Assembly: GCA_001600815.1 (NCBI GenBank) | Contig: BCKZ01000015.1 | Location: 186,001 to 250,000, forward strand | Reading direction: 5' to 3' | DNA from: Alloascoidea hylecoeti | Lineage: Eukaryota | DNA length: 64,000 bases | Part shown: positions 593 through 59,992 of the stretch, piece after piece | Layout of the letters: every line of letters begins with the position of its first letter | Position numbering within the stretch: the stretch's first letter is position 1 | Made by a program: the position numbers and the translations under genes | Notes under the pieces: generated by a model | Database searches by the model: none | The model's input: the letters and a program-made list of their open reading frames with translations, nothing else | What the model was told of the DNA's origin: nothing

Positions 593-3500
593 ATGAGCAG
601 TGATACTGTTATTCCAATAGACGAGCTTGTTGACTTTCTATTGGAAGCTGTGGCATTTACAGGATATGAGGGTATGCCAGTAACCATCGTGTAATTGTGT
701 GCTAGGCTGATGATACTAATTATTGACATTTAGGCTGTTCCTTGGAAAAACTATGGTCTTTTACTTCAGAAAAAGTGCCTGACCTAGATGATTGGCTCAA
801 AAGTGTAATATGGCGAGCACTCGTGTCTCAATATAGAGACGTGTTTGTCTTCAACGATGACAAAATGGTATGTTTTCCTTCTATCTTGTAAGTTTGTGGA
901 AACTAATACTAATTTCAATTATCTTAGATTGAAGATAAACAACTTATAAATGATGTGAATAATCTTATACTAAAATATGGCCAAAATATACGTGTTCTTA
1001 CAACAGAAGAAAAGCAATGGAAATCGTTAACATATATGCAAAAGGAAGGAAATCCAATCGGAACATATCCATTTCATTTATTATGTCATATAGCCAGTGC
1101 AGGCCCAAAAGGTATTAGCGGTATTAAGCTTGCTTCACAAAGTGGTCAAGATCCTCGATCTTTATTTAGTAGAATAAAACTTCTAATTGATTATGGTCTT
1201 GTTACAAAGCAACCGTTTGTTTATAAACAAGCTAATACTTTTATATATTATCATTCAACATTTGAAAAGGAAATAAAGTCAGCTGCTCCTGGTGGGAGCG
1301 AATACACAAGAAAGATTTACGAGGCTGTTAGATCTAGTGAAAATCAAATCATATTATTTTCCGATCTTAAAAGGCAGGTTGGTTTCGACCCATCAAATCC
1401 TACTAAATTTGGAAAATCAGTTAGAAGGTTAGAAGGATTGGGATTTTTTAAAAGAGTTAGAGCTAGAAAACCAAATGAAAACCGTCAGTATTATTGTGTT
1501 CAATTAATTCGTGATATAGAAGGGGAAGACGAATTAGAATCTGAAAGTGATTTTGATGATGATAATAATATTGAAGATGAAGAATTAATTAATGAAGAAC
1601 AAAATGCTGATGACAATGATAATGATGCCGGAGGAGAGACAACTCCATTAGGTAACTCTTTTACAATTGCACCAGAAATTGAAAATATAAATAAAAGTTC
1701 CCCACAATACTCAACTTCACTTCAGCTTTATAATCGTTTTTACCCTTTAGAGAATCAATTATATGAACTAGTAAAACAAGATAAACATGGTATATCAACA
1801 ATGAAAATAGTTCGTGCTTCTGTTGGAATTGGATTCTACAGAATTTTCCAAAAAGTGTTGGATGGGTTTTGTTTTACCGAACAACTCCAATCAAATCAAC
1901 CCCCTCATTTAGATCACTTGACTATTACAAGAAGTTATGATTTTAATTCAAAGGTCAAATTCTTTAGATATTTTTCAAACTCACAGATTAAAGAATTACA
2001 AGGCCAACCACCAAATCCAAACTGGGGTACATTTAAACCAATATCAAGATTGGGGATAGAAGAAAAAAGTTTATTTCAACTTAGCAAAGCCAATTATACG
2101 CCTATTGGTGGTGGCGCTTTAATATATCTAGATAAAGATGGTGTTGAAGATTTATTGTGGACGGTTAAACAAAATTTAACTGATAATCTTAAAGCAAATC
2201 ATTTTTATCACTTAAAAAGGATTTTGAGTCCAAAGATTGGTCGTCCAAGGAAAACTCCTTTAAATGAAAATAAACGAACTATATCTCAGCTTGATGAAAA
2301 TGACATTGCTGATGAAACACCGGTTAAGAAAAGTCGTGGTCGTCCAAAAAAGGTAAAGCCAGTAGAAACGCAAACCCCAACAATAAAAAAAGGTCGTGGT
2401 CGTTCAAAGAAAGTACAGTCTTCCAAGAAGGCTAGCAATAAGACTGGCAAGAATAAGGAAATCTCTGTTAATGATAATGATTCTTTGGATACCCATTCTT
2501 CAGATATACAAGAAGTTGAATCACTAATTCAGACAGAAACACCAGGTAGGAAATCAGGAGCCCATCGCTCCAAAAGTGCCCTACCAGCAGAAACTCCTCA
2601 ATCCTTAGTCATAAATTCTCATTCATCAACTCCTTCAACCTTAAAGAAACTTAGTCCATCAAAAATTATTGCACCAGCTAAGAGAAAATCTAGAAGGTTG
2701 ACCCAAACTGTCTTAAGTTTCGGTTCAAAAAAGAAGGAACCTAAACAAATAGTTGTGGAGACCTCTAATGATGTTGTAGTTCAACAGCCACAAGAAGTAC
2801 AAGAAGATATTATTGCGTCTACCCCAAATGAGAATGATGTAGATATGGAACCCAAAGAAGTAACTCCCGCTTTTCAGGTAATCAATTCAGCTAATATTGG
2901 ACAAAATCATGAAGAGGATGTGATTATGGAACCTAGTGAAATTACTAATACTCCATTGCTTGTTTCACCACACCCTCAAATAAACAATTCAACTATTGAT
3001 ACAAATGAGAAGGAAATTCCAACCGAGCCATCTCAAAAACAACATAAAGAAGGAGAAAATAAAAGAATTGGCCCAAGTATTTGGAGAAACCCACGAAACC
3101 GAAGTACTCAAACCCCTACTGGGGTACCATCACCTATCCATATTCCAATGAATTCAACGCCAACGAGGAGAAAGTCGAGAAGTATATCGACTCCAACTCC
3201 AACAGGAGCTGCCTATTCAATTAAAGCTATCAAAAGACAAGATGCATTATTAGAGACAGTTAAAAAAAATGGGGGAGTAACCGCTGGTGGTCAACCATTA
3301 ATTAAAGCAATTAATGATTTATTAACAGGTAACGAACCAAGTAAACTTGATAGAAAAACATTAGATCGAGATATAGATTCATTAATTTCAAAAGGAAAAA
3401 TAGAAAAACATAGGTTTACATTTTTTACTGAGTTGGGTACAGAAAAATCCCGTTATTTATTAATTGATAAACAAACTTATCCACCAGAAGAATTAATTTT

Positions 3501-5481
3501 TAAAAATATTGAAAAATTAAAAGCTTCTAAAAAAGCAATTCAAGTTCCTCCTAAGAAATTAGAAGTTATTGTTTCTGATTTTAAAATATTTGATACAAAT
3601 GCAAAGTATACAAAATATCGTGATCCTAATAAAGTTAAGACTGATTTAAAGAAGAAAGGACGAGTATTACCTTCATTTGAGAATGATAAAGGAACAAGTA
3701 CTCTTGATAAATTGAGACATGAAAGAGATGAAAAATTAGCAAAAAGGAAAGAAAAGGAGAAAAAAGAAATGGAATCAAAAGATAAACCTTCTACTCCAAA
3801 GCGTCTTTCCAGTTCTAGTATTAGTATCAATAACCCTCTTTCTAAAAAAGTTAAACAAACACCTGAAGAAAAACAGAGAGCTCGAACGGCAGTCTGGAGA
3901 AAATTAAAAAATAAAGTTTCTAATGATCCACTTTATGTTATAAGTAGGCATAGACCATTAAATAGTTATCAAAAAGAATTAATGGAAAATGGACAAGATG
4001 AAGATCAAGTTGTAAAGGAGAAATCAAAACGTGGAAAATTAAATTTTGATGAAATTCCAGAAGATATTTTCTTTAAAATTGTTTTAATTTCAAGATCAGT
4101 TAATAATTATCATGCAGATTGGGAATTAATTGGAAATTTTTTTAATAATAAGCATTCAAAAAGTGAATTTAAAAAATTATGGATACGAGTTATAAAAAAA
4201 TATGATGGTAGATTTGGAAGTTATAAAAATTCAAAACAATGGGAAGAAATTGTTTTAGCAGGAGTTCGTGATAAAACTTTTGATGTTACAAAATTAAAAG
4301 AAACAGATCTTCAATATTGTTTAGATTATTGGAATGAACATGATACATTTGAAACAATAAAAACTAGAAATAGTGATTTTGATGATATACCTTCAGATTC
4401 CAAAGATTTAGAAAAAGAATATGAATTTCTTCCAATTATTCATCGTGAAGAAAACTCAACAGTGGAGAATTATTTTGTTTCAAAATCAATGATTCAAAGA
4501 GATTTATTATCATGTCAATTGAGTTTTACCTATAAAGAATCAGATTTAAACGAATCAACAGATATTTTTAAACATCCTAAAAATGATAAAGGAGGTGAAG
4601 AAGAAACAAAAGTTGCTACTGCTATGAAGTCAATTATTGCTACTGAAACCATATCCTATGAACCAAAAATTGCTGCCAATATTTTAGCTCAATTTGATGA
4701 TCGGGTAGTTACTCCAGTTATTAATAAACTTGAAAAATATCATTTAATTTCGTTTTCAGGTAGAAATGTTAGACCACGAAATTTTAATTTCAGTAATGAT
4801 ATAAATATTAAATTACAAGCAGCTAATCCATCAGTAAATTCATCAAATGCTATACTAAAAAATAGTGTTGTCTACTTATCGAATGAATTTTATCATAAAT
4901 TGAACCCCATGTTTGATAGGAAAAAGGGAGTTTTAATATCTCGAGTCATACATGATAGTTCATTCATGTGTATATTTGATTTGATTGCAAGAAATCAGGT
5001 TGATTTGGTACTTGATAATCGAGTTCCGCAACATGTTTTGGAAAATGGTTATCATTCAAGGGGTTTTAAACCTGGAACCTATTTTGATGTTATAGTAAAG
5101 AAGAAAGGTTCAAATGATGATAAAGAAAGCAGTGAATTGATTGAACAAGATTTAAAAGAATTTATATCTGATATTCCAGGAGGAGAAAAATGTAGTAAAA
5201 TATGGATTGATATTAATGGGAATAAAAACATGACATTTTGGAGACTTTTAACTACATCGTTGTTATATTTAATATCTATCCACCCTGGAATTACAAAACC
5301 TTACATATACAATTATTATAAAGAACTTTTAACTTATGATGAGATTGAAGATATTATTGTTTGGTTAAAGAAGCGAAAAGCATTATTTGATGAAAAGTCT
5401 AAAAATGATGTTTATGGTGACAGTGATGGAATACAAGCGTATTGGGTTGATAAATTTTGGTATCATAGGTGGGAATGCTAA
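593..5481 (+). CDS. TFC3: RNA polymerase III transcription factor TFIIIC B-box-binding subunit (tau138); exons 593-671, 734-867, 928-5481
   Basis: Spliced N-terminus MSSDTVIPIDELVDFLLEAVAFTGYEGCSLEKLW. Introns 672-733 (GTATGC..TACTAAT..TAG) and 868-927 (GTATGT..TACTAAT..TAG) join in frame to the 1508-aa ORF. Motifs SGQDPRSL, YNRFYPLENQ, KLDRKT and KIWIDING..FW are typical of Tfc3. Confidence 0.85.
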
Positions 5482-5819
5482 ACATATTATGAATATACAA
5501 GTATAATGTTAATTGTGAAAGAGCTCAAGATTTATTTATAAACAAACTGGCTGCGAAAATACAAGATATCCATATACATATTCAGGAAAAAACCAAAAAG
5601 AAAATAATGAACAATGATAAGTGACGTTATTAACTTTAATTAAAGTCAATAATTAAGTATAAATTTAAAGATTATATATGAACTTGCAATATTTTGATAA
5701 ATAATTTCAAAAGCTAGTTACAGGTAACTAGCGTTAACATTGTGCATATAATATAAAACAGTACCAGCTATCCAGTGTTTCATCCAGCTGAAATCCAATT
5801 TATAATTATAAGTACACAC

Positions 5820-6578
5820 TCGGTCATTAAGGCACCAACTATCTACGTACAATACCATTCGAGGTCTTCTTTATAACTACTAAGAAACCGATATATGTCT
5901 AATCCCTTTGTTTTTTTGATATGATTCCTTTTCACAGAGCCATCTACCAAATTAATTTACAGATAATAGCCAGTAATGGCGTCCTTTGTTGGCGTTTTGG
6001 TGGTGGGTATTATGTTCCAATTATAAACAGCTTCACCCAACAACTAATCTACGAAACAATAAAGCATCTTTGTAAGCTGTCATCCCAACCTGTGCATAGT
6101 AAAGTACCAAGTTAGTTAGCCGACTCTTTTCAGTATCAGTAGAAGTTTAAAACACTTCCTTAGCTCTTGATGCAGATTACCCGCCATTGATAGATTATTG
6201 GATTATTGAAAGGGACAACCCGCCACTAACTAGAAATCTATTTATTCGACATGTTCTGCTCAAGGAAACTTCTTCCTATGTGTTTCAGTAGCCTAGCTTC
6301 CCTGTCTATTGGTGTAAGCTAAGTGCTTTGAAATCTTTTGTTTTATGCCATTGTAGCGGTGAAAAAGAAAACGGAGGCAGACAATTTCTTTGGGGCAGCC
6401 GGTTATAATGGGTTCAACCTTTAAATATATTGGGTATAACCTTAGAGGAGGTCAAGCTCAGCTTCTATCTGACTAAAATTAGAGTGACTATTTAACAAAA
6501 CACTCTATCGACCCATTTGGATACCTTTACTGAGATTCTGGCGCTTAGTAGAGAATCCTTACGTAGTCTACTTTCTCT
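5820..6578 (+). ncRNA. Candidate telomerase RNA (TER/TLC1-like); 5' end approximate
   Basis: No credible ORF. Nested long-range helices: 5843-49/6560-66, 5877-84/6544-51, 5954-70/6461-80, 5981-87/6210-16, 5997-6009/6178-90, 6027-33/6074-80. Template-like AACCCGCCACTAAC at 6217-6230, pseudoknot at 6318-6377, TATAAAA at 5752-58, and ATAAGT..TTAAC..CAG pseudo-intron at 6579-6640. Confidence 0.6.
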
Positions 6579-7379
6579 ATAAGTAAAGTAGCTAGTATTA
6601 ATATTTCAGAAATATAATTAACTCCTTGATTTCATTACAGGCCTAGGGTATTACGATGAGACATTTTAAGGTACAATTTTCTACAATTGCAAGTGTTAAT
6701 TATTTAAAGAAATTGAATTGAATAAAAATAAACAACTCACAAAAGAGATCTAGACGAAATAATGGAGTTAATTATACCATGAAAAGGTCCAATCATGAAC
6801 ATTAAAAGGCATTTGTTTAATATTATAATATTTCATCTAGTAACAGTTTAATTTCTATGAACCAAAAAATTAAGATAATCGATAATTTTCATGATGGATT
6901 GAAAATTGATCATGAAGATCGTGTATTTAAAAATAAAATGTCTTCTTGAATTTAAACAAATTGAGTTAGTTTAATTTTGCGAAGGAGTAATTAATTCGTT
7001 TAGAATTGTGTCGATTACTAGACTAACTACTTTAGTTGTTGTGGGGTGAATGCACATGACAGTGGAAAGATTCTTACTAATTAGCCCCAATACACTTTAC
7101 GAAACTTACCTCTTTTTGTAATTATAAAACAATATAACAAACGATTTATCAAGCACCATATTAAATTAAAGGTTCATCTCGGATCAAATTCACCACTTAA
7201 CTAAACAACTATTGTAATTTGTAGCACTATCAAACTTAAACTCAAAGGATAATAATCCCGGAAAGGAGTTTCAATTGATCTACTTGAGAGAAACTTGACG
7301 GACCTGGACCCTGGTACAATTTCTCCGAGTTTTAGGATATGGTTTTCGCGGCTGAATTTAATTTTAAATCCGTCATACA

Positions 7380-7387
7380 GTCACGTG
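7380..7387 (+). promoter_or_regulatory. Cbf1/bHLH-type E-box GTCACGTG upstream of PDR16
   Basis: RTCACGTG match. The same motif occurs at 28859-28866 (PCT1/ARO10-like divergent promoter) and 36800-36807 (PUT2 promoter). Confidence 0.4.
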
Positions 7388-7885
7388 GTAACACATAATT
7401 GCAAGATGGATATCCAGAATCTAGATCTGATGAAGGAATAGCTGGAGAATGCAATTGTTGTGATATTTCACTGAGCGGTGTCCAAATTCCAATTGCAGGA
7501 TAAAAGAAGTTTGGGGTGGTCTACAGGTGCGAAACTGCTATAATCTGTTCTGGGTCGTGGAGTGGTAAGGCCTGGGAAGAGCGGGCCTGGAAGAGCAGAA
7601 TTGCCCGTGCGAGCGATCTTAGAGCCAATTCTTGCCACCATATACTTGACACAATAGAGCGCAGGCAGTCGTAGAAGGGCGGATCCAAAGACTGTGCTTT
7701 GCTGGGGAAAATTGGGACATGCCGAAAGATCCGAAGGAGTTGTAGGCATAACAGCTCAACTGGCAGGTCCGGCAGCTGCTGAAAATACTTTCCGGCTGCC
7801 GGCTGACTGATCGAAGGCAACCGCATTTCATGTATTTAATTTTTATTTAATTCCATTTAATTTTTACTTCTGTCTGGCTTTATAA

Positions 7886-9091
<1,206 letters not shown>

Positions 9092-9550
9092 TTATGGGGA
9101 CCATTTTTCTTATATACCACAAGTCTCATCAATAAAAGGTAATAAAACTAAAAGACTTCAAAATCATCGATATATACTACCAACCCCCCCATAATTCTGC
9201 CTGTTTTTGCATTTCAATTTTTCATTCTTAAGGCATAAAGTTAAACATATATATTTTATTGATGTGGAAAAGCATTTTGCTACTTTTCTAAATGATATGA
9301 TCATCATCAAAACATCTATGTTTAATCAATATGCAACGTTCAATAAAAGGTGTTACTAATCACTATTTTTTTGATACACTTATTTCTTCCCGTTCGGATC
9401 TTGGTTTTTAACACTTTTTTTAAATTTTGAAAGTTTTTTCTTTTGTACTATATTATAACTAGTTTTAAATATGATTGATTTTAAAGATATATTATACTAT
9501 TAAAACATAATATCTTTGTAGATAATTGTAATAATACATTCCATAATTAT

Positions 9551-13120: not shown

Positions 13121-13729
13121 TGTAGAATAGATGAATAATAAATGTTTAACAACAACTTTTAAATTTAAATTTGCAAATTTTCAATTGCCCAAAGTTTTGT
13201 AAAGGCTCAGGCAAACAAAATTTTCACTCTGTTAGTATTTTCGGTTACCTCGGCAATTGCGTGTTAACAAGGACGCCTCTGACTCACTTCTTGCCCAAGT
13301 GGCCAATCAGAAGCGGCCACTCCACGATACTGGACGGCAAAATACGCGTGGCTGGCGTGACACAGGGGTAGATTAGAGCACGCCAATAGGTCATTGTGGT
13401 TTTTGGGAGCTATTCTCTTTCCTAAAGTCAGCAATCAGCAATGTTCTACAATTTTCGTTTCCTTCTCCAGAACCCCTAGTCGTCGAAAGCAAGCCCATGG
13501 TCTCCCAGGAATAGTCGGTGCCATCCACGAATAGAACCCCACAACCCAGCGGAAACCCCCAGCAGACCCTCAGTGGCATGGCGGTGGCGAGGAGGTGCAA
13601 GGCATGGGTATGTGGATTTGTGCGTAACTGTCAGCACGGTTGCCAGAAGCAGAGTACTTAAATCCCACCAACCGCCAGCTTTTCTTTTTCAAATTTCTTC
13701 CAGTTCTTACATTTTACCTCCTTCCACCC

Positions 13730-15916
13730 ATGAACGACTTCTTGCCGGGTAACCCGAAATTGGACCTGTCCACCCCTGTCCACACTCCTTCAACGGGAAA
13801 CGACAGTCAGGATCCGTTCACAAAAGATGAGGACCGTCGTGAAGTTGGCCTGGTTACTCTCAAGAACCAGCAGTCGATTGGAGAGACCCCCATCTCACCC
13901 CCAATCCCTTCTCCAAGAGCTTCAGATCCAGTCTCTGCACACGAGCTTTCTTCCCAGGATACTTCGGTCATTAATGCCCCTGTAGATGTCTTAAAACACG
14001 AAAGGGATTACGAAATCCACGAAGATGAATCGAAAAGAATGAAGCTAGATACCGATATTCTTGCTGATAATTTTTCCAGCTTGACTGACGATCCCGTTGT
14101 TGGTCTAGTTAGTAAGTCCCCTATCACTCAATTACAACCTTTTTCTTTCCCAAAACCTCAACCCCAGCCTCAACCCCAATCCCAATCCCAACCTCAACCT
14201 CAACCTCATCAAATGAAATCTCAACCAGCATACCAGTCGCATTCGAATTCTTTGATTCAATCAAGACCCCATTCATTATCATCTGTTTCTTCAATCAATG
14301 GGCCTTTGCCTAAACACCAACAACGTCATCTTCTGGCGTCTATCAGGTCTGTTAAACGCTTGAAAGATGCAGGCCCATTCATAATTCCTGTTGATGTCAC
14401 CCAGTATCCAAATTATCCAAATTTTGTTAAGCAGCCAATGGATTTAACTACGATTGAACAAAAGTTGCGTGATGATCGTTACAATTCAATAGAACAAATA
14501 GTTGCCGATTTTGAACTCATTGTTTCTAACTGCACTGCTTTTAATGGTTCCGCAGCTATCATTTCTCACATGGCAAGAAATATTCAAACTTCATTCCTTA
14601 GACATTTACAAAGTTTACCTCCATATGATGCTGTGCCACAGATATCTAAGAAGTCACGCAAATCAACTCCTTCCAAACCATCTTTTAAATCTCGGAAGCC
14701 TAGTGGAGCAAGTCATAATCGTAGTAATTCTCAGTCGTTTGCTTTACAACCTTCTGGTATTCCTACAATAAGGCGGGAATCTGCTAATGATTCAAGGCCT
14801 AAGCGAGAAATTCATCCCCCGAAGCCCAAGGATATTCCTTATACTGATATGAAACCACGAAGAAAGAAGTTTGCAGCAGAACTTAAATTTTGTGGTCTTA
14901 TGCTACGTGAATTACAAAATAAGAGACATGAAACTTATTCTTTCCCTTTTATTCAACCCGTTGATCCTGTTGCATTAGATTGTCCCACTTATTTTAAAGT
15001 TATCAAAGAACCAATGGATTTATCGACAATTGCAGGCAAATATCATTCAAACCAATATGAAAATGCTAAAGAATTTGAGGATGACATAAGACTCATGTTT
15101 AGAAACTGTTATAAATTTAATCCAGAGGGAACACCTGTTAATATGATGGGTCATAGATTAGAAGCTGTTTTTGACAAGAAATGGGTTGAGAAACCATTAC
15201 CTGCACTAAGCCCACCTCCAATTTTAGAAGATTCAGGTTCTGATGATGATTTTGATGGTTCTGATTTAGATTTTGATGAAACAACAGTTACAAATCCAGC
15301 AATTCAATTTCTAGAACGGCAGCTGGAGAGGATGAGAATGGATCTAATTAAGATGAAGAAGGAACAATTTGAGTTAATGAAAAAACAACGAATGAAGAAG
15401 AGAAAAGCTGCCAAACAAAATGATCGAAGAAAATCATCAATCTCTGCCATTGGAAAGCATAAGACCAATAAATCAGTTGCTCCAATTCATGTCACATATG
15501 AAATGAAGAAAGAATTGTCAGATAAAATTAGTGTCTTACCTGAAAAGAAATTAATGCATGTGGTCGATATAATTAACGAAAGCATGCCAGATTTAAAAAG
15601 CAATGGAGATGATGAGATTGAACTGGATATTGATCAATTAGATCCCTCAACTGTTCTCAGATTGTATCAATATGTTGTTCGAAAGATCGATAGAGCTCCA
15701 CAGCAAACTTCTCCGCAACATAATCCTAAGCCCAGAAACAAAAAGAAGGCAAAGCCATTATCTGAAGCTGAACAGAATAGTAAAATAGAACAAATACAGA
15801 AGCAGATAAAAGCGTTTGATAGAGTGCGCAATGGGGGTGAAGCAGATATTAATTCAAGTGATGATTCAAGCGATGATGGTGAATTAAGTGATGAATCAAG
15901 TTCAGAAGAAGAATAG
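13730..15916 (+). CDS. BDF1: BET-family double-bromodomain + ET-domain protein Bdf1
   Basis: Two bromodomains (PMDLTTIEQKL..NC..FNG and FIQPVDP..PMDLSTI..NCYKFN) plus ET domain (VTYEMKKELS..EIELDIDQL). First ATG is at 13730. Confidence 0.92.
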   Translation: MNDFLPGNPKLDLSTPVHTPSTGNDSQDPFTKDEDRREVGLVTLKNQQSIGETPISPPIPSPRASDPVSAHELSSQDTSVINAPVDVLKHERDYEIHEDESKRMKLDTDILADNFSSLTDDPVVGLVSKSPITQLQPFSFPKPQPQPQPQSQSQPQPQPHQMKSQPAYQSHSNSLIQSRPHSLSSVSSINGPLPKHQQRHLLASIRSVKRLKDAGPFIIPVDVTQYPNYPNFVKQPMDLTTIEQKLRDDRYNSIEQIVADFELIVSNCTAFNGSAAIISHMARNIQTSFLRHLQSLPPYDAVPQISKKSRKSTPSKPSFKSRKPSGASHNRSNSQSFALQPSGIPTIRRESANDSRPKREIHPPKPKDIPYTDMKPRRKKFAAELKFCGLMLRELQNKRHETYSFPFIQPVDPVALDCPTYFKVIKEPMDLSTIAGKYHSNQYENAKEFEDDIRLMFRNCYKFNPEGTPVNMMGHRLEAVFDKKWVEKPLPALSPPPILEDSGSDDDFDGSDLDFDETTVTNPAIQFLERQLERMRMDLIKMKKEQFELMKKQRMKKRKAAKQNDRRKSSISAIGKHKTNKSVAPIHVTYEMKKELSDKISVLPEKKLMHVVDIINESMPDLKSNGDDEIELDIDQLDPSTVLRLYQYVVRKIDRAPQQTSPQHNPKPRNKKKAKPLSEAEQNSKIEQIQKQIKAFDRVRNGGEADINSSDDSSDDGELSDESSSEEE

Positions 15917-18682: not shown

Positions 18683-19516
18683 ATGGAACCATCCTTGGAA
18701 TCATTGGAGAATTCTATCGGTGCTGACTGGGATTATCGTGAACCCGAAGATGGTCGGAACAGTGCTTATTTTATTTCAATGAGAGATACTGATATGGAGC
18801 TTGGACCGAACAGTCCTACATGTGCAGTTTTTCAGCAGAATCCCTCCCCACAAATGTCGGAAAGTTCTTCCAGAAAAAATAATCTAAATGTAATAGATGA
18901 TATTTCAGTTTATAAAAGACATTCAAGATCTGAAAGTGCAACATTTAAAATCCAATTTAAAGACTTTTCAATTGGCACTCCAAGAAAATTTAAGAAAAAG
19001 GATAAATCTGGATTTTACAAATATACATCTCGTCCTAGTTTTCCTGAAAGAACAAAAAGTTCCATATCTTTAAGTGAAATTGCTCGCTTAAATCCGGATT
19101 ATTTATCTCTTCCCCCACAAGAATGGGTTTTTGTTGATTCATCTTCATCAATAAATAAGCATCATAGCACTGCTACACTGGTTCCGTCAAGGATTGCAAT
19201 TTCGTCAAGATCCACTCACCACGCAAAGTTAAAACGATATTCGACAGAAATGCTTTCTTTAAACTCAAATACATATTCAAAAGATTTTAAAAGCTCTATT
19301 AAAAGATTATCACGTTCTCGGTCATCGAATTTCTCCAATTATCCCAAATTGCGAATGGTGGTGTCAGATGAAGGACAGGCAATCATTCAAAGATGTACAA
19401 GCACATATGATCATACATTTAACTTGCAGAATAGAGAATTTGAGGAATTTCAAGGTTTCAGAGATTTATCAATAGCAAGAAATGAATCACTTTTTCCTTT
19501 TTCTTCATCTTTATTC

Positions 19517-19594
<78 letters not shown>

Positions 19595-20011
19595 GTGACA
19601 GCAATTGACTCTTCTTTACCATCACCACGAGGTTATAATTGTGATTTTACCAATATTGATCGAGATGATGAGACAAGAATCATAAATGAATCACAACATG
19701 CAATAATTCCAGAACGTGAAATTGCAATATCATCATTAAAAAGTAGTCCAAATAATCATATTTCATCCCTGACAATTCCTTTAATCGGATATGAACCACG
19801 GGTGGTTCAGGATAACATCGAATCTTCTTATAATATGATTCAATCAAATCCTTCCCCTACTGGTACAAATAATTTTCTTTCAACGGAAACTAAACAAGGT
19901 ACCACAATAATTTCAGAATTGAAACCGTTAGTTGATTATAATGATAACGTTGCTAATGTTGATAATGTCGATTCTTTTGATTTTGATTCTTTTGATTATG
20001 GCGCATGGTGA
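18683..20011 (+). CDS. Hypothetical Ser-rich, probably disordered protein (442 aa)
   Basis: Long ATG-initiated ORF with an upstream TATATAAAA; no recognisable domain. Confidence 0.65.
19517..19594 (+). repeat. Perfect (TCA)26 microsatellite encoding poly-Ser
   Basis: 78 nt of uninterrupted TCA, in frame within the 18683-20011 ORF. Confidence 0.95.
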
Positions 20012-30872: not shown

Positions 30873-33800
30873 ATGGATTCTGCTTTCAGTGCTCTTAAAT
30901 CAGGCTCAAAGAGCTTAGCTAAGAAAGGGAAGGAAATGAAGCAAAATGGAAGTTATAAACCTTCTTCATTTTCAATGGGTGGTGATGGGAATAATGGTTA
31001 GTACACTATATTAAGAATTTCAAATTTGATACTTGTCATCTAAAAGTTATTGTTAACACATATTTATTTAGATGAGACCTCCGCATCCATACAGGCTAGG
31101 CCTTTATCTGCATTAACCGACCCAAAAGCATTCCCTGCCCCTCCTAGGCACGGTGGTGGTGGGAGTGTTTCTGGGTTTAGTCCCGCAGTTCAACCACAAC
31201 CATCTGCTCCCGAGTATCAATATCAATATCAGCAGCAAGCTCAAGCTCCCCCACCAGCTCAACCAATCCAGCCAAGTCTTCCAGCTAGGAATTATAAACA
31301 ACAGCCTCAACCTCCATCTCAACCTCAACCTCAATATGAATATCAACAAACTCAACCCCAGCCTACTACTTATCAGCAGCCACCCGTGTACGGACAACCC
31401 GCTCAATCACAACCGGCTATGTATCAACAACCCGTAGTATATGAACAGCCCAATTTTCAAAATCCTCCTCCTCCACCTCCAAGGGCAACTGAGGCTCAAT
31501 CTTATAATCCTCCGGCAGCTCAAGTTCCACAACCGGGTGAACAACTCGGATATTCGAATCCGTATTATTCAGCTCCTCCTCAGCAGCAAGAAGTCAACCC
31601 TCAATTGGGGCAACAACCCCCGGCAAATCAATCCATCGAAGATAGAGCAGTTAATCGTCTGCAACCTGCTATTCACAATACTGTACAGAATGCTACCCAG
31701 GCTGCCGTGACACAAAGTATATCCTCGGTGTTTAACCGCAATCCACAGCAGCAACAATTGGCTCAGCCTATTCAACAACCTATTCAGCAGTCTCAAATTC
31801 AGACTATGGGACAACCTGTTGCTAATCAATCATTTGAAACTAGACTTGCCAATAGATTGCAACCCACAATGCAAAATGCAGTTCAAGCTGGTGCACAGGC
31901 AGCTGTGAAACAGGGCATTTCATCAGCATTTAACAGAAACCCACCGCAAAATGCTGCTCAAATAACTAGTACTCCTGTTGTAGAACAAACTATCGGCGCC
32001 TCTCCAAGCATTCCGGCAAGAAATTATTATGCTACTAGTCAAGTAAATGGATATGAACCCCCAACTACATCTTTGTATCAACCTCCTATCACATCGGCTT
32101 CTCCAGCATTTCAGCAGACTGGCTATCAATCTCCAGTTGCTCCTAACCCGAATCTTCAAGCTCCTTCTTCGTTTGCCCCACCTCCAGTATATCCAGAGCC
32201 AGTAAGTTCACAATTGAGCGGATATTCTACAAATTACACAACTGCTCAATCTACAACTCCAAGTTTTTCTGCTCCAGTATCTGTTGGACCACCAACTTTA
32301 CCTAATAGGGTAGGTTCGTCTGAGGCACCAATCTCCGAAAAGCCAAAACCAAGTCTTCCGGATCCCTCAACATTTGCTCCTCCTCCTATTTATCGTGGAC
32401 CGGCTAGGATATCTCAAATTGAAACCCCTAAATCCAACCGTGATTCTGTTTCTCATTCAAAATATGGCTCCCCATCTCCCAATCCATCACCGTCACCACC
32501 ACCTGCAGCTGGACCAGTTAGAGTCCCACATTTGCCCCAAAGAAAAACAGGAAATGCTCTAAATACTACAAAATTTGATCCCGATGCATTTGCGCCTCCT
32601 CCTGGAATGCCCGATTATCGTAAGAAAGAAAAAGCACAAAATAATCCAGAAAATACTGCTCCGCCGTCTTATTCACCATCTTTGAATTCATCACATGCTG
32701 CATCTCCAGCTAGGGCCTCAATTGATAGCTTTGCACCACCACCAAGGAGAATACCAATTCCTAAGAAGCATGATGTTGGAAGACCCATATATCATGAAAC
32801 GACTACTGATGACTCGGCTGGTGATGATACTTCATACCCAACACTTACGTTACAATCATTAGATGACGAAGAAATGGCACCACCACCAATGCCCACAAGG
32901 CCAATGCCGGGAAATCTCAACAATGTTAGTGCTACTGTTAATGTTCCACCATCCAATATATCTAACATTGATAATGGTGCAACCCCTCCTCCTATGCCTG
33001 TTCGTCCAAATGTATGTGACGATGTGACTAACAAACGTATATCTAAAAGTTACATTTCTAATGAAGGGACAAAACCTATTGTGAAACCCAAACCTAAACC
33101 ACCAGCTTTAAAACCTAAGCCTTCTATAAAACGCAAATCAAATATAGGTACTGGTTCCAATTTTAATGATTCTGATGAAATGACTTCTGAGCTTAATACA
33201 AAACTAAGAAAAGCTAGAATGTTCGAAGATCAAGATCAAGATCAAAGTCAAAATCAAAATCAAAATGTATTAAACCGTCACCAGGATTTTGATAACATTT
33301 CAAGTGGTATGAGCTCAGAACTAGAGGCCAAACTACAAAAGGCAAGAGCAAGAGAGACCGGAAATGAAAATGCACCGAAAAAAGAGAACCATCACCATAC
33401 AACATCGTATATACCAAACAATGAGTCTAATGATATCGGGTTAGAGCTGGCAGCAAAATTGAAAAAAGCTAGAGCCTTTGAAACTAAAACCAAACCCGAA
33501 ACTGAATTTAAGTCAATACCAGTGAAATCAAATTTAAATCATTTCTCATCATATTCGGAAAGTTACGTTACACCACCCACATTAATAAAATCGAAGCCAA
33601 AGCCAAAACCAAAACCACGCATTTATGATTCCTCTATAATTTCTAAGGTACATCCTGATATAAATAGTACCAGTTCTCCAGCCGATAATGGAGTGAGTTC
33701 AGAATTAGCTTCAGCCTTTTCAAGGTTAAAAACTGCCGAAAATTTCGAGACAGATGCTCCATCTTTTGGTTCACCACATAGAAATAATTCAGTTAAACCC

Positions 33801-38970: not shown

Positions 38971-39006
38971 CAGGTCCCATCACAGGTCCCATCACAGGTT
39001 CATCCA
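38971..39006 (+). repeat. 12-bp tandem repeat CAGGTCCCATCA x about 3 upstream of SSD1
   Basis: caggtcccatca caggtcccatca caggttcatcca. Confidence 0.8.
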
Positions 39007-39124
39007 CAGACAGACCCAACCTCCATTCCATCTTTTTTTTCTAGTTTCATTTCTCCGTTTCGCTGTTTCTTTCAACACCTTGGTCCTTAACGATTTGACT
39101 CTTTACCGTTTGCTATAAAGTTTT

Positions 39125-42100
39125 ATGTCCTCAAATCATCAAGACCAGTCCAGTAGCTCACAGGGCCCAACCTCAGGAAGCTCGGGAGGGCCTTCAGCAA
39201 CAAATTCCAACCAATCTCAGGCTTCTTCTAATCTGGCCATTCCAGGCCAGCAGCACAGGGGTTCCAGAAATCTTCACATTGCTCATCGTCGATCTCCTTC
39301 TGAATTGACCACTCTGATGAGTAGGTACTTCTATTTAGCTGCTAGTTTTATAAAACATGATAAATTACTAACCTTTGCTCTTTTCCCCCTTTTTAGTTGA
39401 ACAATTCAATCTTCAACGTCAGTTGGAGATGGTTCAAGCCCAGCACCAACAACTTCTAGCTCAGCAACAACAGTTGAGCCAGGGTGGCTTCATCCCCCAG
39501 CAGCCCTCAATGATGAACGTTCCAGGAACAAATGCTCCTCAAAGCTATATGTCAAATTCAGGCACGTTTGGTCAATTCTCCTCTGCTGCTCCTACGCCAC
39601 CACCTGGGTTTGGACCCACCGGCCATCGCAGAATTCAGTCATCAATTCCCGGAACATTAGGTCCTCCTCAAAATATGTTTGATAGGAGAAATAACAATAG
39701 TAATGATCAAAACCAAGCTCATGGAATGGGTCATAGCAGAAGACACTCCCTGGGAATTTCAGAGGCCAAAAAAGCTGCTGCTTTGGTTCAGTCACAACGT
39801 TCTTCAGGTACTGATTCCTCTTCTTCTGCTTCGGTTCCAGTTCCAGTTCCAGTTCCTATCCAGATTTCTGCTCCTACTTCAAATGCAACTTCTGCTCCAT
39901 CTTTCAAATTCCCTCCAACTCCTATCCAGGAAGTTGACACTCCTGTTTCACCAAACCCTCCGCCAAATGCTCATTCCAGATCTCAATCCCTGGCTTATGG
40001 CCAAAACCAGAGATCATCCTATCAAAGACCATCCTACCAGTTCCCACCCATGAAAGAAACCACACCTACTATTGGCCCTATTCCATCCCATGTGAGAGGT
40101 GGCTCAAATCAGTATGGTCATGGCCGTTCAAGCTCAAGTAATAACTGGCGACAATCCCAGAATCTTCAATCTAAAGATTATCTTACTGCTTCTGCATTTA
40201 CTCCTAGTCATGCGGGACGTGGATCGGTTTCATCTTCATCAGGTTTCCAAGGAGGATACGGTAATCAACGTAAAAGTTTGTTTGCCCCTTACTTGCCCCA
40301 ATCATCATTACCTGGGTTAATAGCTGAAGGTAAATTGGTTACTGGTATCCTACGTGTAAATAAGAAAAACAGATCTGATGCTTATGTTGCTACCGATGGT
40401 TTATTAGATGCTGATATTTTCATTTGTGGTTCTAAAGATAGAAATAGAGCCTTGGAAGGTGATTTAGTTGCTATAGAGTTATTAGTTGTTGATGAAGTAT
40501 GGGAGTCAAAGAAGACCAAAGAGGAGAAGAAAAGAAGAAAAGATGCGGCTTCTTCCTCTTCAAACGTTGATATTAGAAATGATGCCAGTACTCTAACCAA
40601 TACTAATTCAAACTCTTCTGGTAATAATGGTTCTACAGGTTTACAAAGAAAAGGTAGTTTAAAACAACGTCCAACACAAAAGAAAAATGACGATGTTGAG
40701 GTTGAAGGTCAAAGTTTGCTCCTCGTTGAAGAAGAAGAAATCAGTGATGATTATAAACCTTTATACACTGGTCATGTTGTTGCTGTTGTTGATAGAATCC
40801 CAGGTCAGTTATTTAGTGGTACTTTAGGATTACTCCGTCCATCTCAAGCTAGTAAGAGAAATGATGATAATAAGAAAAATGATAAGCCAAAGATTGTTTG
40901 GTTCAAACCAACTGATAAAAAAGTCCCATTAATTGCTATTCCAACAGAACAAGCTCCTGCAGATTTTGTTGAAAATCATCAAAAGTATGCTGATAAGTTA
41001 TTTGTTGCCTCAATTAAAAGATGGCCCATTACTTCTTTACATCCATTTGGTAATTTGGTTGGTGAAATTGGTACAATTGATAATCGCGAAACGGAAGTTG
41101 TTTCAATTATGCGTGATAATAACTTCATGTGTGATGAATATCCTAATGAATTGGATACAAATTATGTACCTGAAGGTGAAGAGCCAAAGGTAGTTCGTCC
41201 AGAAGATTTGGAATATTTAGAAACGATACCTGATCCAGAAACTTATGTAATCCCAAAAGATATTTCTGAAAAGAGAAGAGATTTTAGCGATGAATATGTT
41301 TTAGCTTTCAGCGCTGATGGATTATTATCCGATCAAGCATTTCACATTAAAAAAATATCTGAAGAAAGAATTGAATTGGCTATTCATATTTCAGATGTTA
41401 CAAGTTTCATTGATAACAAATCAGTTCTAGATAAAAAGGCTAAGAAAAGATCAACCACTGTATTTTTAGCTCAAAAAGCTGCTCATATGTTGCCTTCCAA
41501 ATTGAACAAATTGGTTTCATTTGCTGAATCTAAAGCATCATTAGCTATTACTATATCTTTTGAAATTGATACGGAATCTTTTGAAGTTAAAGATGTCTGG
41601 ATTGGAGAAAGTGTGATTAAACCAAAAAAATTGTTAAGTTATAATCTTCTCGATAAAGTTATATTAAATGAAGCAATCTCGAAGGGTGATGTGCCTTCAA
41701 AAGATAAATTAAATTCTGCTTCTATTGACTATATCAAGACTTTGGCGCTTGTATCACGAGAATTCAAACGTCAAAGATTACACAATCAAGAGTTGGATGA
41801 TTCTCATACTTTGTCATTACTTGATCAATTAGATGATGAACCAGTTTCTTTAAGCTTGAATATTTATGAAACTAAACCATCGACAAGAGTAATTAATGAA
41901 ATACTTATTAAAGTTAATACCGCAGTTGCAGAGAAATTATTTGCAAAATTGGGAAATAAAGCATTCTTGCGTCGCCAACCATTACCAACTTTACAAGCTG
42001 CTCAATCATTCATTAAGAAAGCCAAAGCATTGGGATATAATCTGAATACAGCATCTAGTTCCACTTTACAAAATGGAATCTTTAAAGTTAAAGATGTTAC

Positions 42101-51134: not shown

Positions 51135-51193
51135 TTTATGAATTGCTGAAATAAAAAAAAGATTTACACAGGCTTAAAATACCATGCTTTGAC

Positions 51194-51213
51194 TGACTCA
51201 TTTGTCCGGGTAA
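51194..51213. promoter_or_regulatory. Gcn4/Bas1-type TGACTCA plus Reb1-type CCGGGTAA in the ADE1 promoter
   Basis: TGACTCA at 51194-51200 and CCGGGTAA at 51206-51213, 60-80 bp upstream of the ADE1 ATG. TGACTC is the known purine-regulon element in yeasts. Confidence 0.7.
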
Positions 51214-53568
51214 AAATAAAAATATGGTACAGTCTCTAACGGCTAAATAAAATTATAATGTTTTTAAATACATAATTACAATGATTACCAAACATTTATA
51301 AACTGAAGCATAAGAAAAAGTTACCAAAGCTTCAATATTTTTCATGAAAACACGAAATCCACCCTTAAATAATAAAGCAAATTCCTGAAATGCAACTAGA
51401 TAATGAACCTACCGGTATATCATAGATCCTCCTTTTTATAACCTTGTACATTGAATTAGCCATATTGGAAAGAATACTTCGTCATCGTAATGCATACATT
51501 AACAGTTTTTGAAAATTATATATTAGTTACACGAGTGGCAACCTGTTTCATCATCTGTTTGGGTACATTTTATAATTCTGATAATATATGTTCGATATCT
51601 TAGCTTGTAAATCTTGTTATGGTGTGAGCGCGTTCTTGTAGTTTATTCACCTCACCTATTTCCAAACTTCCAACACACATCTCTATTTGTTATCTCGGAA
51701 TGTGTGATTAGTGCCATCTCCTCTTAGAAGTCTGAATTCCACTTTGAATACTTTTTAAGGGTTCTTCGAGCATTGTAGTGAAGACATGAGATCTTGGTGC
51801 TGGCTTAGTGTTTTTGCCAAATGAATGTCTTTCTTAACACAATATCCAACAAAAAGTGTTCAACTCCAGTGGCCGGTTTAGTGTGTTGGATGACTGTCCT
51901 ATATAAGTGTACGTGACAGCAGATGTATCGATATCGGTGAAAAAAACGGGACTCTTAATCTATGATGAATTTAATGAATATATTGTAAAACATGTAAGTT
52001 AGTAATGTAACCATTTAGAAGAGATCTAAAGGAGAACATTTTGCAATTTTTTTTTTTTTTTTGATTGAAAGTATTTTTTTTTTTAACTTTTTTACAACTC
52101 GAAATAAAACTTACATATCTTTCCTTAGTATTTCATACCTTAAGATCTTAACTTTAGGATTTATACTGGAACAACAGGTATCGCTACTACTTTCACTAGT
52201 TTTCTTTCAGGTAATTTCAAATTTCAGCCATGAGATTATTGAGATATAATAATACTACGAAATATCTAGAGACATTGGTATTAAAACCGAATGAATGAAG
52301 TTGTAGATTTTGTTAAATAGCAATTTACTTGGATGATCGCATTGTAATAAGGTACACTGGCACATTAAAAATTTGAGTAATACTACCATATTAGCTTACG
52401 GTAATACTATAACTTAATTATGCTTTAATTTTATATATCTATTTAACGTTTAGCTAGGTCGATGTTTTTCTTTCTACTTCGATTTCAGACAAATATTCAA
52501 AACTTTATAAATTCAAACAAAATCGTAAAATTCATAGAGCCAACATTATATTTATATTGGCAACACATGTTAGATTGTATTTCCAATCTTCCATATGTTT
52601 GGTTTTTTAGGCTTAAATTTTGTTTGAATTTAGAATTGCAACTGGTTGTAATAAGGACGAAGACGGCGGTGTTCGTACTCAAAAGTACCGTTCCTAGGTT
52701 TTCACATAATTTTTAACAATTAAAATCAATAATATTCAGTATTAGTATTAATATTGTTCATCCTAATTGACACAATTACAATCATTTTTACTTATAAGAT
52801 CACAGCTACCTCAGTTATAGCAACACGTTTGATAACTTGATATGCGTATAGCTATAAAGAATGTGTACACTTTAAAATGTTTTTAAAGCACCGTGAAATA
52901 TTGTAAGGAGAATGAATCAGAGAGTGTGGTTCTAGAGATAAGACAAATTAATCGCAATTATATGCTTGAGTTGTCTAGAACTAAACATGATTATATATGA
53001 AGACATTGAAGAGATGACAAAGAACCCAAAGATCAACAATCTACCATGAGTCTATGACAAATATCCGTCCTTAACAACGGAACAGTTCCAGCGTTAATAA
53101 AAAGACACGATTCCAATGTTAAATAAAATTGGAACATTAAAGGCTCTGGGATCTATTAGGGAAAAACTTCATATCTTCAAGTGTGTATTCGTTGCCATCG
53201 ACATAGGCATAGCCTAGCTATATCCACTTATATCTTTATAATAATAGAGCCCACCAGGTAAAATTTAGCTTTTAACATTATATACATAATTACAGCTATA
53301 TAGCTATACACATAAGCGTATTTAGATTATTTCTCTATATTTTGGCTATTTTTCATGCGTGTAAAGAAATAGTTAATATATGCGCGTTCTCTATAGAGGC
53401 CTCAAGCAATCATTTCATGCAGAAATGTTTGCATTTTTCCTTTTTAAGGTAATACAAATCACGCATGCGGCTGAAGCCGGCTTAACCAACTGAGTATTTC
53501 TTATTTATATTTCTTTCTTTATCTTTTTTACCTCCTTTGTTTTTTCCCAGACATATTCCTTCGTTATA

Positions 53569-55099
53569 ATGTTGCCAAACTACGCCCTCATTGCAGCTTT
53601 CATTACTGCCAGTAAGTTATTTATTTTCAATCTACGCTGCTCAGCAATGCTTTGAATCTCGGCTGATCGAAGAATGAAAACAATTTGAGGCTCGAAATTG
53701 AAAAAAAAAAATTAAAACTCGTCGAATGAAACTTGAGGAGCAGACATACTGGCAAATTATCTACTGGTTGTCTTTGGAATACTCACCTTCCCGAGTAAAA
53801 TTATATCAAAGAGCAAGATTATACGAGCTGATCTCGTAAATTTCAAAACTAGCACACGCAATATAAAGTTTTTTCATACTAACCATAACCATTTTCATAG
53901 TTTCCGCCGCTTCCAACAGTGAATCATCCACCAAATCCTTGTCTGTTGCATCAGGCTGCTCTTTCTCCGCAACTGTAACTGCTACTGCACAGGCTGATCT
54001 GGACAAACTTAGCAGCTGTGCTGCCATCAGTGGTGATGTTCTTGTCACAGGTGACGATTTACAAAATGCTAATCTCGACGGCGTTCAAGAAATTAAGGGT
54101 TCCTTGCTTATTAGTGATGCTACAAATTTGAACTCATTCTCAGCTGGTTCCTTGACTTCTGTCGACAACACTTTGAACCTCACCCGTTTGACTGTAGCAA
54201 CCTCTTTAACCTTCCCAGTCTTAACAAAGGTTGGATCTATCCAGATCGTTACCTTACCAGCTCTAAGAGAGTTTGGATTCACAGATGGTATCTCACAGGT
54301 TGAAACTGTTCAAATCTCTGACACTGCTGTAACCACCTTGACAGGTATTAATCCAGTTAATGTTGACACTTTCAATTTAAACAACAACAATTATTTACAA
54401 TCTGTTGTTTCACCTTTACAAACAGTCTCAAATGCTTTGATTGTTACTGATAATGGACGCAATTTAGCCGCTTCTTTTGACTCTTTGATCTGGGTTAACA
54501 ACGTCACTATTTCAAAAACTTCAAACCTTTCTTTTGCTTCCTTACAAGCTGTTAATGGTTCTTTCGGTGTCAACAATAATTCATTCACCACTTTGAACTT
54601 GTCATCTGTAGAAAAGGTAGGCCAAACTATTGCAGTTTTCAATAACAATGAGTTGACTTCTCTTGATTTTAGCAATGTCACCACTTTAGCTGGTGATTTG
54701 ACTGTTGCAAATAACACTGCTTTAGAAGCAATTGATGGTTTTAAGGAATTAGAAGTTGTTAGAGGATCCATCACTTTGACAGGTGATTTAGCTAATGTTA
54801 CTCTCCCAGCTTTAGACTCTGTCACTGGTAGTTTCAAGGTTGATAGCGGAAATAAGGATTTTGACTGTGATAATATCAAAGAAATTAAGTCATTTGTCCA
54901 AGGTGCTTATCTTTGTAAAGCTGTTTCAAAATCTGACAGTCAAGCTTCTGGTTCTGGCTCTGGCTCAGGATCCTCTAAAGCATCCGGCTCCGCCTCCACC
55001 TCCAAAGCTAAATCATCTGGTGCTGCAGCTGGTATTTCTGGTTACCAGTCATCCACACTCCTTGGTGCTGTTGCCGCTCTTGTTATCTCTTTCTTATAA
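53569..55099 (+). CDS. ECM33: GPI-anchored cell-wall protein Ecm33/Pst1 (receptor L-domain); exons 53569-53611, 53901-55099
   Basis: Signal-peptide exon MLPNYALIAAFITA joins via a 289-nt intron (GTAAGT..TACTAAC..TAG). TATAQADLDKLSSC, ISDT..L.GI, FNLNNNNYL, Ser/Gly-rich stalk and hydrophobic GPI signal. Confidence 0.9.
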
Positions 55100-58000
55100 A
55101 TAACATAACCATATTAATAGTGTTTAAATTTCAGAACCTTTAAAACCCTTTTTCTCTACTAATAACAATATTCTGAAAAAAAGATTGTATAGCTGTTTTG
55201 ATCTTGACTGACATCTTTAGTCTTTTTGAAAATTCCTTTAAAGTTTCGATAAATGTGATTTTTTTGACTAGCTGTAACTATAATTTACTGAATGCTCTTT
55301 TCTCTGCTTAATCTTACTTGATTTTACATTTATTAGCACTCAACGAACGTAGTTAAAAAGCTTAGTGTATCTTTTTAGGTTTTGTGCGTAATATGTGTAT
55401 ATACGTGGCTCTAGGATCATTTAGAATTCAGAATAAATTATTCAACGTTAAATGCAAGCCACAACAATAGAAATGTAGATACTTTTCAACCTAGGTAAGC
55501 CCCACGAAAAAAAAAAAACTGTTAGAAACATCAATAAATTTTCGACACCCCTTGTGAAAAATGTGATCATAACACCAAAATCACATCATTTATATATTAA
55601 AGACTACAGAAGGTCGATAAATGTCAAATGTAAGTGATATCATTTCAAATTAAATTTTACACTACTGTCAAATTATTTGTTCCTATTTCTTAACTATGCA
55701 TAACAACAAATCTTACTTTATGGATGAGTGCATAGATATGTATGAGATATTTCCTTATACCGTATTACGTAGTAATTCATACTAGATGTATCATTTTGAG
55801 TGGGTTGCACAATAGTTATTCTTAATCAATTTCATGGAAAAACGTTGCACAAACAGAAAAAGTAATTTGCCTATCTAGATCTGCGGCCGCTTCAAACTGA
55901 GACTATAGCTAGCCATCAGATCTAAAGTAGATTCATAAGAGCAGATCGATCAAGAACTATATATATACCTATATATACATCATTAAAGATGCAAACACGA
56001 GCTCTTCAAAATTATTTTATACGGTAGTGGTATAATAGGAATAAGGTACTCTCCATGTAGATTGGAAATTTTTGGAAATTTTCGACTCTTTGAATATTGG
56101 TTTTGTTTCTTTCTTACATACAAGCATATAATAGAATAACTGTTGTATCGTCTTTAAGCAACCAATCGGTTTATTAACCTAATATATTCTTTCATAATCT
56201 GGTTATTATACTACATGTTCTTCGTTCGTTTGTATAGCTTATTTCTATATTTTACTCTTTCTAATATAACTATACTCTTGTGTGTACAATTCAGAACACG
56301 GACGTCTAAAGCATCAATGAATATAAGAAATTGTATGCTCTTAACTCTAGATCTCTGTTTCTGTAATATTAGTGTTCTTGATATCATATATGTGCATATG
56401 GGAAGGAAAAAGTAAAAATTACACAACTTATTCAAGAATATAATGTTAGATATAACTTCAATAAATAGACACCCGAAAAGCTGTTATTATTTTTTCTCTA
56501 TGCCAATATTGATTATAATGATCTGTGTGATCATATCAGGAAGTAAAAAATGCAATAATTTCTGATATAAGTAAATTATATTCCGAGATTTAAAACTGGA
56601 TATACGAGAAGCTTAGTACATTTAATTATTAAGTATTCTGAGTATTTAATGAACACGGCAGTAGTTGATAAACAGATCTGGATAAGCTACTAATAATAAC
56701 TATAATAAGCTGAGAGAGTGAACAATAAACAAATGAAGCGATAAAAGAAAAATACAATTGGATACTGGGAACACTGAGAAAATGAATTATAAATGTACTT
56801 AAAATATAATTATAAGAGTAGTACTAATCTGCAAAAAAATGGACTAAGGTAGTTAATACAGGTAGACCAATTTGTTGTGGATACTATTGATATTGGAGAT
56901 TGTATCTATTTATTTAGTCTTCTTATTGATCCTATTGTTTGGTCTTCATATCCAATCTTATATTTTGTCTTCGAACTTCAAATTAAACTAATTGGTTTTT
57001 GTTCATATTGTTCCAATTATTTCGCGCTTAAATCGGTCCATAGAGTGCTAACCGCGCGTTAATCGATTGATTTTCTATTGCGGCTTATCTTTACAATCTA
57101 CACTCATAATTAATAATATGAAGGTGTTATTGATCCTATTTTGTACGACAGATCAAGGAGATCGCATTATCTACCTACATCAAAATTCATACAATAGAAT
57201 TTTAAGCTTGGGATATCGGCAAGTATGGTATCTACTATCTACAACTCCATTAATATTGAGTAAGAGATCGGCGGAAAACGAATAAATCTTTAGCAGATAT
57301 AATTTTCGTTTCTATAACGAATATTTAGTGGAATATTCAAATTTCACACGGTATTTAACGTCATATTCATGCGCCGGTCATTGTTCATTAATGTACCGAT
57401 CGAAAGTTATGGCTTTATTTGACAGAATTGAAACAGCCGATGATGAAAATTTAAATTATTAAAATATAACGCGACTAAAGAAAACATACAATGTATCTTA
57501 CGACCAGCTCTCTTTATAGAGCCAGGAAACTAATTATGGACCTTGGTGTGGAGTAAACAAATAGATTGCGATGAATCTAAAACCACAAAAAAACAAATTG
57601 GTATTGCCAACGCAAAACAGTTAGTTCAAGTTTAACTTTAATATAAATATATAGTTAGTGTGGAGTAAAAAAATACACTACTTATGAATAGTTATTTAAA
57701 ATTGATAATTTAACAACTCTCGACATCTTTCTATATTCCCATAATTTAACTATAGACTCCACTATAGGAAAATATTTATTATGAAAGTGGGTTAAAAGAC
57801 CTATGTATCTTCAATGAAAATGAAAGAGCAAAAGAATTCGGCAATTGATCCTGAAGAAGTATATTTCCTAAGAAAACACATCTTTATCAAGTTTAATGGT
57901 AATATAAAATACATGTATTCCCATTTATGAAACATGGAGTAATTAAGTTCTAATTCACCACCAAATAATTTATAATCAAGAGCCAATTATTTCGCACTGG

Positions 58001-59784: not shown

Positions 59785-59992
59785 TTCCGGCCAATCAGTT
59801 GAAATTGAAGAAGAGGAGGAAATGGGGATTTTGTTTCTTTTATATTCCATTCATGAATCCATTGTATGTAAACGTCAGAATGCGTTCAATCAATCAACTG
59901 AAAATGTGGAGTAAGCTGACATCGCTAGACACATCTTCATTACTAAGCAAAACCAAATATAAAATGTCCCATTTTCTGATGTGAAATTGTCC

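Follow-up and report, generated by a model that had tools for sequence, protein, structure and literature searches.

Telomere repeats built as TTAG-spacer-GGG are on record in early-branching yeasts (PMC7857110). The nearest recorded motifs are the 11-nt unit TTAGCGAGGTG, putatively assigned to Trigonopsis vinaria, TTAGTCAGGG in Yarrowia, and TGGCG3-4 or GGGTGGCG in Ogataea (PMC7857110). The Yarrowia unit stands in the table of that paper exactly as it had been quoted in the first-pass annotation of the locus described here. The telomerase RNA of Hansenula (Ogataea) polymorpha, HpTER, is described as ~680 nt long and without a canonical Sm site, its template lying ~170 nt in from the 5' end (Smekalova et al., 2013, PMC3851723). 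Curated models and homology searches are known to miss yeast telomerase RNAs, and most lineages outside the well-studied orders of budding yeasts still have no annotated one (PMC6115765). A different kind of element, TTACCCG, is the motif of Reb1 in Saccharomyces cerevisiae in the accessible parts of two papers (PMC5052057, PMC12305957).

The locus compared with these systems lies in a stretch of 64,000 nt, hereafter the window, from Alloascoidea hylecoeti (GCA_001600815.1, BCKZ01000015.1, positions 186,001-250,000 of the forward strand); coordinates below are those of the window. The window is AT-rich budding yeast DNA (34% GC), and the candidate template sits in a 2449-bp gap devoid of long ORFs between a TFC3-like gene (1036-5481, + strand) and a SEC14-like gene (7931-9091, + strand), the latter followed by CSL4 and BRE1 homologues. 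DNA reads covered the stretch completely and with zero differences, with four matching DNA runs from three studies; two metatranscriptome runs yielded no reads over it, which speaks neither for nor against expression. Long intergenic gaps were common across the window, and the GC content of 6001-6600 (0.377-0.397) was only ~1 SD over the intergenic mean of 0.332; neither the size nor the composition of the gap marks a gene. Elsewhere, 51135-60656 formed a 9.5-kb stretch without any ATG-initiated ORF of at least 150 codons, with GC-richer patches at 53400-55200 and 59100-60000, and a perfect (TCA)26 microsatellite was located at 19517-19594 within an ORF (18683-20011) that had no Pfam family.

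The CTG codons of ADE1 aligned with an invariant leucine in three of three cases, so the nuclear code is read as standard. The identity of ADE1 to any protein found was at most 73%. A single-gene ADE1 tree placed the window outside a supported clade (97/97) of 23 entries from Serinales, Pichiales, and Phaffomycetales, and also apart from the Myxozyma, Sugiyamaella, and Nadsonia entries. The organism appears to represent an isolated and fairly deep lineage, a coarse placement drawn from a tree of one gene.

The first-pass annotation had read a telomerase RNA template from the + strand letters at 6217-6230. The 14-mer AACCCGCCACTAAC was found at exactly this position and consists of an 11-nt unit plus a repeated AAC. 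Its copying would, as had been proposed, yield (TTAGTGGCGGG)n, with the DNA end aligning on AAC and 11 nt being added per round. In a scan made for the present analysis, it was the sole template-like match on the + strand of the gap. The pattern AACCC-N(1-8)-CTAAC had one match in the window vs. 0.54 expected, and at least one match was obtained in 42 of 100 shuffles. A telomerase RNA gene is a single locus per genome, and chance alone produces a pattern of this kind in roughly four windows out of ten; a template reading thus needs strong and specific support. The 11-mer formed no array in the window and was present once in 64 kb. When the sequence was folded without constraint, the 14-mer was buried in a local hairpin (6189-6242), from which it could be freed at a cost of 10.5 kcal/mol. 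The evidence for the 14-mer as a telomerase template is weak, and the finding is a lead, not a result.

The predicted repeat was also sought in published collections. The 11-mer was absent from the 250-row Saccharomycotina table in the supplement of Cervenak 2021 (PMC7857110), and no fragments of the repeat were found in the main texts of either PMC7857110 or PMC12449055, the supplement of the latter being one that may list more. It was likewise absent from the TelFinder supplement, in which the only related entry was GGTGGCGG of Ogataea parapolymorpha. A full-text literature search with all 22 rotations gave no yeast-telomere paper among the matches listed. Among metagenome contigs, a query with the 11-mer dimer retrieved three loci (L001, 560-581; L002, 1650-1700, at the 3' end of an ORF of 458 codons; L003, 1885-1906), each with 2 to 3.5 internal tandem copies. 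These loci look prokaryotic, two having GC-rich flanks and one lying on a contig dense in long ORFs, and have no bearing on the yeast.

The robust new fact at this locus is a cluster of three mutually complementary copies of one box at a single spot, a feature that is not specific to telomerase. The 12-nt box ACCCRCCAYYRA had three matches in the window, all within 5997-6229 (233 bp), vs. 0.08 expected; a count of three was reached in 0 of 100 shuffles, a post hoc figure, as the pattern was drawn from the three copies themselves. In + strand coordinates, E1 (TTGGTGGTGGGTA, 5997-6009) is an inverted copy whose box part, UUGGUGGUGGGU, covers 5997-6008; E2 (TTACCCGCCATTGA, 6177-6190) is a direct copy (6179-6190) that includes a TTACCCG core at 6177-6183; and E3 (ACCCGCCACTAA, 6218-6229) is a direct copy inside the 14-mer. 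The two direct copies are 39 nt apart, and the inverted copy lies about 170-210 nt upstream of them. The only occurrences of ACCCGCCA in the 64 kb were at 6179 and 6218, and no further copies of the locus were found within the window.

As RNA, E1 can form 12 bp with E3 (-19.2 kcal/mol) or 13 bp with E2 (-17.2 kcal/mol), which rank second and third in strength among the uninterrupted stems of the gap; stems of -19 kcal/mol or better numbered seven on the + strand of the whole window. The first-pass annotation had cautioned that an upstream TGGC might pair with part of the template. Upstream pairing is indeed available, but the caution was understated, because 12 of the 14 bases can pair with 5997-6008. 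E1 and the 14-mer together reached -20.9 kcal/mol, a value equalled in 0 of 1000 shuffles of the 496 nt upstream and in 0 of 250 other real stretches. The four positions that differ among the box copies are all transitions, which give G-U pairs on the + strand and A-C mismatches on the - strand. In our own reading, such G-U-retaining transitions are more in keeping with an RNA helix than with a DNA site.

A helix between GTCCTTT (5981-5987) and AAGGGAC (6210-6216), both on the + strand, had been put forward as the boundary of the template. The letters of the two strands were confirmed, and they can form seven pairs (six Watson-Crick and the wobble U5985-G6212; -6.9 kcal/mol) that end one base before the 14-mer, but the helix was not favoured in folds; each of its pairs had a probability of 0.000-0.002 in four folding contexts, with the template forced single-stranded or not. 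A helix of at least 7 bp ending at a given base, with its partner no more than 400 nt upstream, could be drawn at 3162 of 9069 sampled positions (35%), whereas one as strong as -6.9 kcal/mol was available at 190 of the 9069 (2.1%), or at 5.3% when an offset of 0-2 nt was allowed. Rival upstream partners of AAAGGGA were UCCCUUU at 5903-5909 and the 9-bp UCCUUUUCA at 5926-5934.

The 38 nt located 5' of the 14-mer formed a duplex of -30.6 kcal/mol with upstream sequence, which was equalled at 40 of 5522 positions. In the best duplex, the upstream strand (5963-5977, +) pairs with 6194-6206, within a 5'-flank part at 6194-6208 (+), and its significance depended on the parameters. Flanks of 20 and 30 nt gave ranks of 206 and 366 of 1786, respectively, and an upstream sequence of 200 nt gave 143 of 1786; the rank of 40 in 5522 holds only if the chosen lengths include E2 and E1. 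When the template was held free in the fold, the E1:E2 helix had a probability of ~0.9.

Features expected of a telomerase RNA were taken from the available parts of Smekalova 2013, Qi 2013, Brown 2007, Cervenak 2019, and Kannan 2015. The search against Rfam yielded no match at the gathering score, and the six weak matches obtained at E up to 10 included no telomerase family. No strict Sm-like site was present on the + strand of 5454-9422, although the window as a whole contained 58 such sites, and no Sm-like site anywhere in the window had a 5' splice site plus branch point after it. Neither GTA[TA]GT nor GTGAGT occurred on the + strand of the gap; the nearest splice-like signals on this strand were ATAAGT (6579) and GACTAAC (7021), 440 nt apart. 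No CS2 motif was detected from the template to 7000. The fungal three-way junction is described with L1=0, L2=A, and L3=GU in the accessible part of Brown et al. (2007), and this topology was not above background, with 2 matches in 6231-7000 vs. 1.73 expected per 770 nt. Folds of 5900-6660 were no stabler than shuffles on either strand (z = -0.43 and -0.11). A U-rich/A-rich hairpin, UUUUGUUUUAUGCC...GGUGAAAAAGAAAA (6336-6371, + strand), was present in every fold at 106-141 nt after the 14-mer and was the sole pseudoknot-like material found. The + strand segment TTTTTTTGATATGA (5911-5924), a U-run with AUGA after it, resembles CS3, one of the motifs of fungal telomerase RNAs; at ~300 nt upstream, it is on the wrong side of the candidate template for a pseudoknot. 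The missing marks weaken the template reading but do not refute it, since a canonical Sm site is missing from HpTER too and yeast telomerase RNAs evade homology searches.

Other parts of the gap were inspected as well. An Sm-like site on the - strand (6871-6862) was rejected as a signal, given the 58 such sites in the window. The GC-rich segment 7350-7930 was rejected as a rival RNA because its folds were no better than those of shuffles. This segment, with GC up to 0.52, lies directly upstream of the ATG of the SEC14-like gene and contains three overlapping - strand open frames, a 14-nt tandem duplication (7569-7596), and a strong hairpin (7769-7802). Other genes are likewise preceded by GC-rich stretches (13200-13650, 31050-31350, and 39000-39450); owing to this recurrence and to its shuffle-like folds, 7350-7930 is read as promoter-like. 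A possible small spliced ORF of ~49 codons, recognized by eye and belonging to no known family, spans 7155-6850 on the - strand, with an ATG at 7155, GTAAGT at 7109-7104, AACTAAC at 6971-6965, and a stop near 6850.

TTACCCG(G/C) occurred at seven sites in the window (500, 6177, 10556, 13752, 51213, 59334, and 63355). In three cases, TTACCCG preceded the first ATG of CSL4, ADE1, and the ORF at 63460 by 61, 79, and 105 nt, respectively, and these distances suggest that it acts as a promoter element in this species. Two other sites were located 22 nt into the ORF 13730-15916 and 536 nt upstream of the TFC3 ATG, and the site at 59334 had no adjoining ORF. The Reb1-type core in E2 (6177-6183, + strand) lies 32-40 nt upstream of the 14-mer. 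The frame nearest to it has only 23 codons (6251-6322, + strand), begins 74 nt downstream, and contains GTAAGC at 6314. Neither a downstream exon nor a multi-exon gene was found after the ATG at 6251, and no long + strand frame follows.

The most likely reading, with a probability of roughly 0.4, is that the 14-mer is not a telomerase template and that the boxes are candidate protein-binding sites in intergenic regulatory DNA. The confinement of the box cluster to one spot, the occurrence of TTACCCG near promoters, the missing telomerase RNA marks, and the chance-level frequency of the template pattern all argue for this reading. A Reb1-like general regulatory factor may bind the core in E2 and keep the spot nucleosome-free, and the bound factor might then start or block transcription nearby. 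The AAC..AAC repeat would then be a coincidence, as would the TTAG-like end of E3, and telomerase would presumably not copy the 14-mer. However, CCAYYRA, which is common to the three copies, extends past the Reb1 core and was seen at none of the other six TTACCCG sites, so that the protein presumed to bind here would have to be a factor different from Reb1. Furthermore, the TTA of the core is missing from the copies at 5997 and 6218, the next ATG is 1.7 kb downstream of the cluster, the TFC3 stop precedes it by 0.5-0.75 kb, the 23-codon frame is the only one beside the cluster, and the differences among the copies keep G-U pairing.

It is unlikely, though the best placed of the other explanations, that the locus is another structured RNA of the + strand, in which the G-rich E1 would form a structural or switching helix with either E2 or E3 and the likeness to a template would be coincidental. 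The rank of the two stems within the gap, the scarcity of stems of -19 kcal/mol or better on the + strand of the window, the failure of 1000 shuffles and 250 real stretches to supply the 14-mer with an equal partner, and the fact that every non-Watson-Crick position is G-U on the + strand and an A-C mismatch on the - strand are consistent with such an RNA. Against this, no Rfam family matched, the C/D box pattern of C/D snoRNAs was not found, the folds were no stabler than shuffles, and one strand with two alternative partners is unusual. The boxes might instead be functionless, left behind in neutral intergenic DNA by an inversion and small duplications of local sequence. Only one copy of the locus is present in the window, its GC content is unexceptional, and the canonical signal of any gene class was not found; however, three transition-only, mutually complementary copies are improbable without constraint, and TTACCCG is promoter-proximal elsewhere in the window, so the odds are well against neutral remnants.

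The reading of the first-pass annotation, a + strand telomerase RNA starting near 5880-5900 with its template at 6217-6230 and telomeres of (TTAGTGGCGGG)n, has about the same low odds as neutral remnants. Its boundary would be set by a long arm (5926-6009 with 6179-6215) and not by a single 7-bp helix. The split AACCC..CUAAC with its 3-nt repeat is exact and has the form that a TTAG..GGG repeat requires, there is no second template-like match on the + strand of the gap, and the flank duplex of -30.6 kcal/mol beats those of rival gap templates (-17.5 to -27.2 kcal/mol), but this flank signal varies with the chosen lengths and the prior odds are low for a pattern expected 0.54 times per window. 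Early-branching yeasts do have TTAG-spacer-GGG repeats, 11-nt units exist among them, and the ADE1 tree places the organism outside the large Serinales/Pichiales/Phaffomycetales group. Holding the template free brings the E1:E2 helix to its high probability, whereas the 7-bp boundary helix has a probability near zero and two competing partners, and the template itself is a partner in the second strongest stem of the gap. The Sm site, the 5' splice site, the branch point, the junction consensus, and CS2 (from the template to 7000) were not found, the first of which is also missing, in its canonical form, from H. polymorpha telomerase RNA as far as the available description goes. A promoter-type TTACCCG box would, moreover, lie inside the supposed RNA, and no array was seen in the window. 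If this reading were true, a budding-yeast lineage outside the well-studied orders would have its first telomerase RNA and telomere repeat, and a TTAG-spacer-GGG form would join the series used in explaining the drift of yeast telomeres from TTAGGG. A more elaborate version, which has only a slim chance of being correct, combines a deep-branching-yeast telomerase RNA and the new 11-nt repeat TTAGTGGCGGG with a built-in template guard, in which E1 would pair with E3 (off) or with E2 as a decoy (on). The decoy would lie 39 nt 5' of the template, the on state would also build the boundary arm, and the telomere repeat would be one base from TTACCCG, which is the site for a Myb-type general regulatory factor. 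Least probable by far is a telomerase RNA on the - strand with the template ACCCACCACC (6008-5999) and TG-rich repeats of the GGTGGGT type. This segment has a template-like form with an ACC repeat and is abutted by an 8-bp helix (6094-6101/6008-6015), but its 5' flank pairs at only -22.6 kcal/mol, the wobble positions turn into mismatches, and ~500 nt are left before the TFC3 stop; the strict Sm-like site at 6871-6862 lies upstream of this template and is one of many in the window.

The comparison with Ogataea is mixed. The repeat of H. polymorpha is GGGTGGCG (PMC3851723), and GTGGCGGG, which is a rotated form of the Ogataea unit, lies within the predicted repeat, although the ADE1 tree indicates that the organism is no relative of Ogataea. 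In the available part of its description, HpTER has a GUGAGU 5' splice site, a UACUAAC branch point, and CS2/CS2a, none of which was found on the + strand here, and its boundary helix was proven by mutation (PMC3851723). As in the template boundary helices of budding yeasts, within the accessible parts of their descriptions (PMC6746865, PMC3851723, PMC3592445), a helix ending before the candidate template can also be drawn here; in contrast to them, it is not favoured by folding and has two competing partners.

The Yarrowia-clade telomerase RNAs, as far as the available parts of the reports describe them (Cervenak et al., 2019, PMC6746865; PMC7857110), share the TTAG-spacer-GGG layout with the predicted repeat, and the halves of TAACCC stand at the two ends of both their template and the candidate. 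The spacer is TGGC in the predicted repeat, which is longer than the TCA of Yarrowia. For the Yarrowia RNAs, these reports give a consensus Sm site, candidate splice signals, support from RNA-seq, and tests by deletion, whereas the + strand of the gap yielded neither a strict Sm-like site nor a 5' splice site with a branch point. For the preferred reading of the boxes as protein-binding sites in regulatory DNA, the closest counterpart is provided by the Reb1 sites of S. cerevisiae. Their known motif does not include the CCAYYRA that the boxes share at the 3' part, and no gene was seen beside the cluster; the TTACCCG core is the same, being complete in one of the three boxes here.
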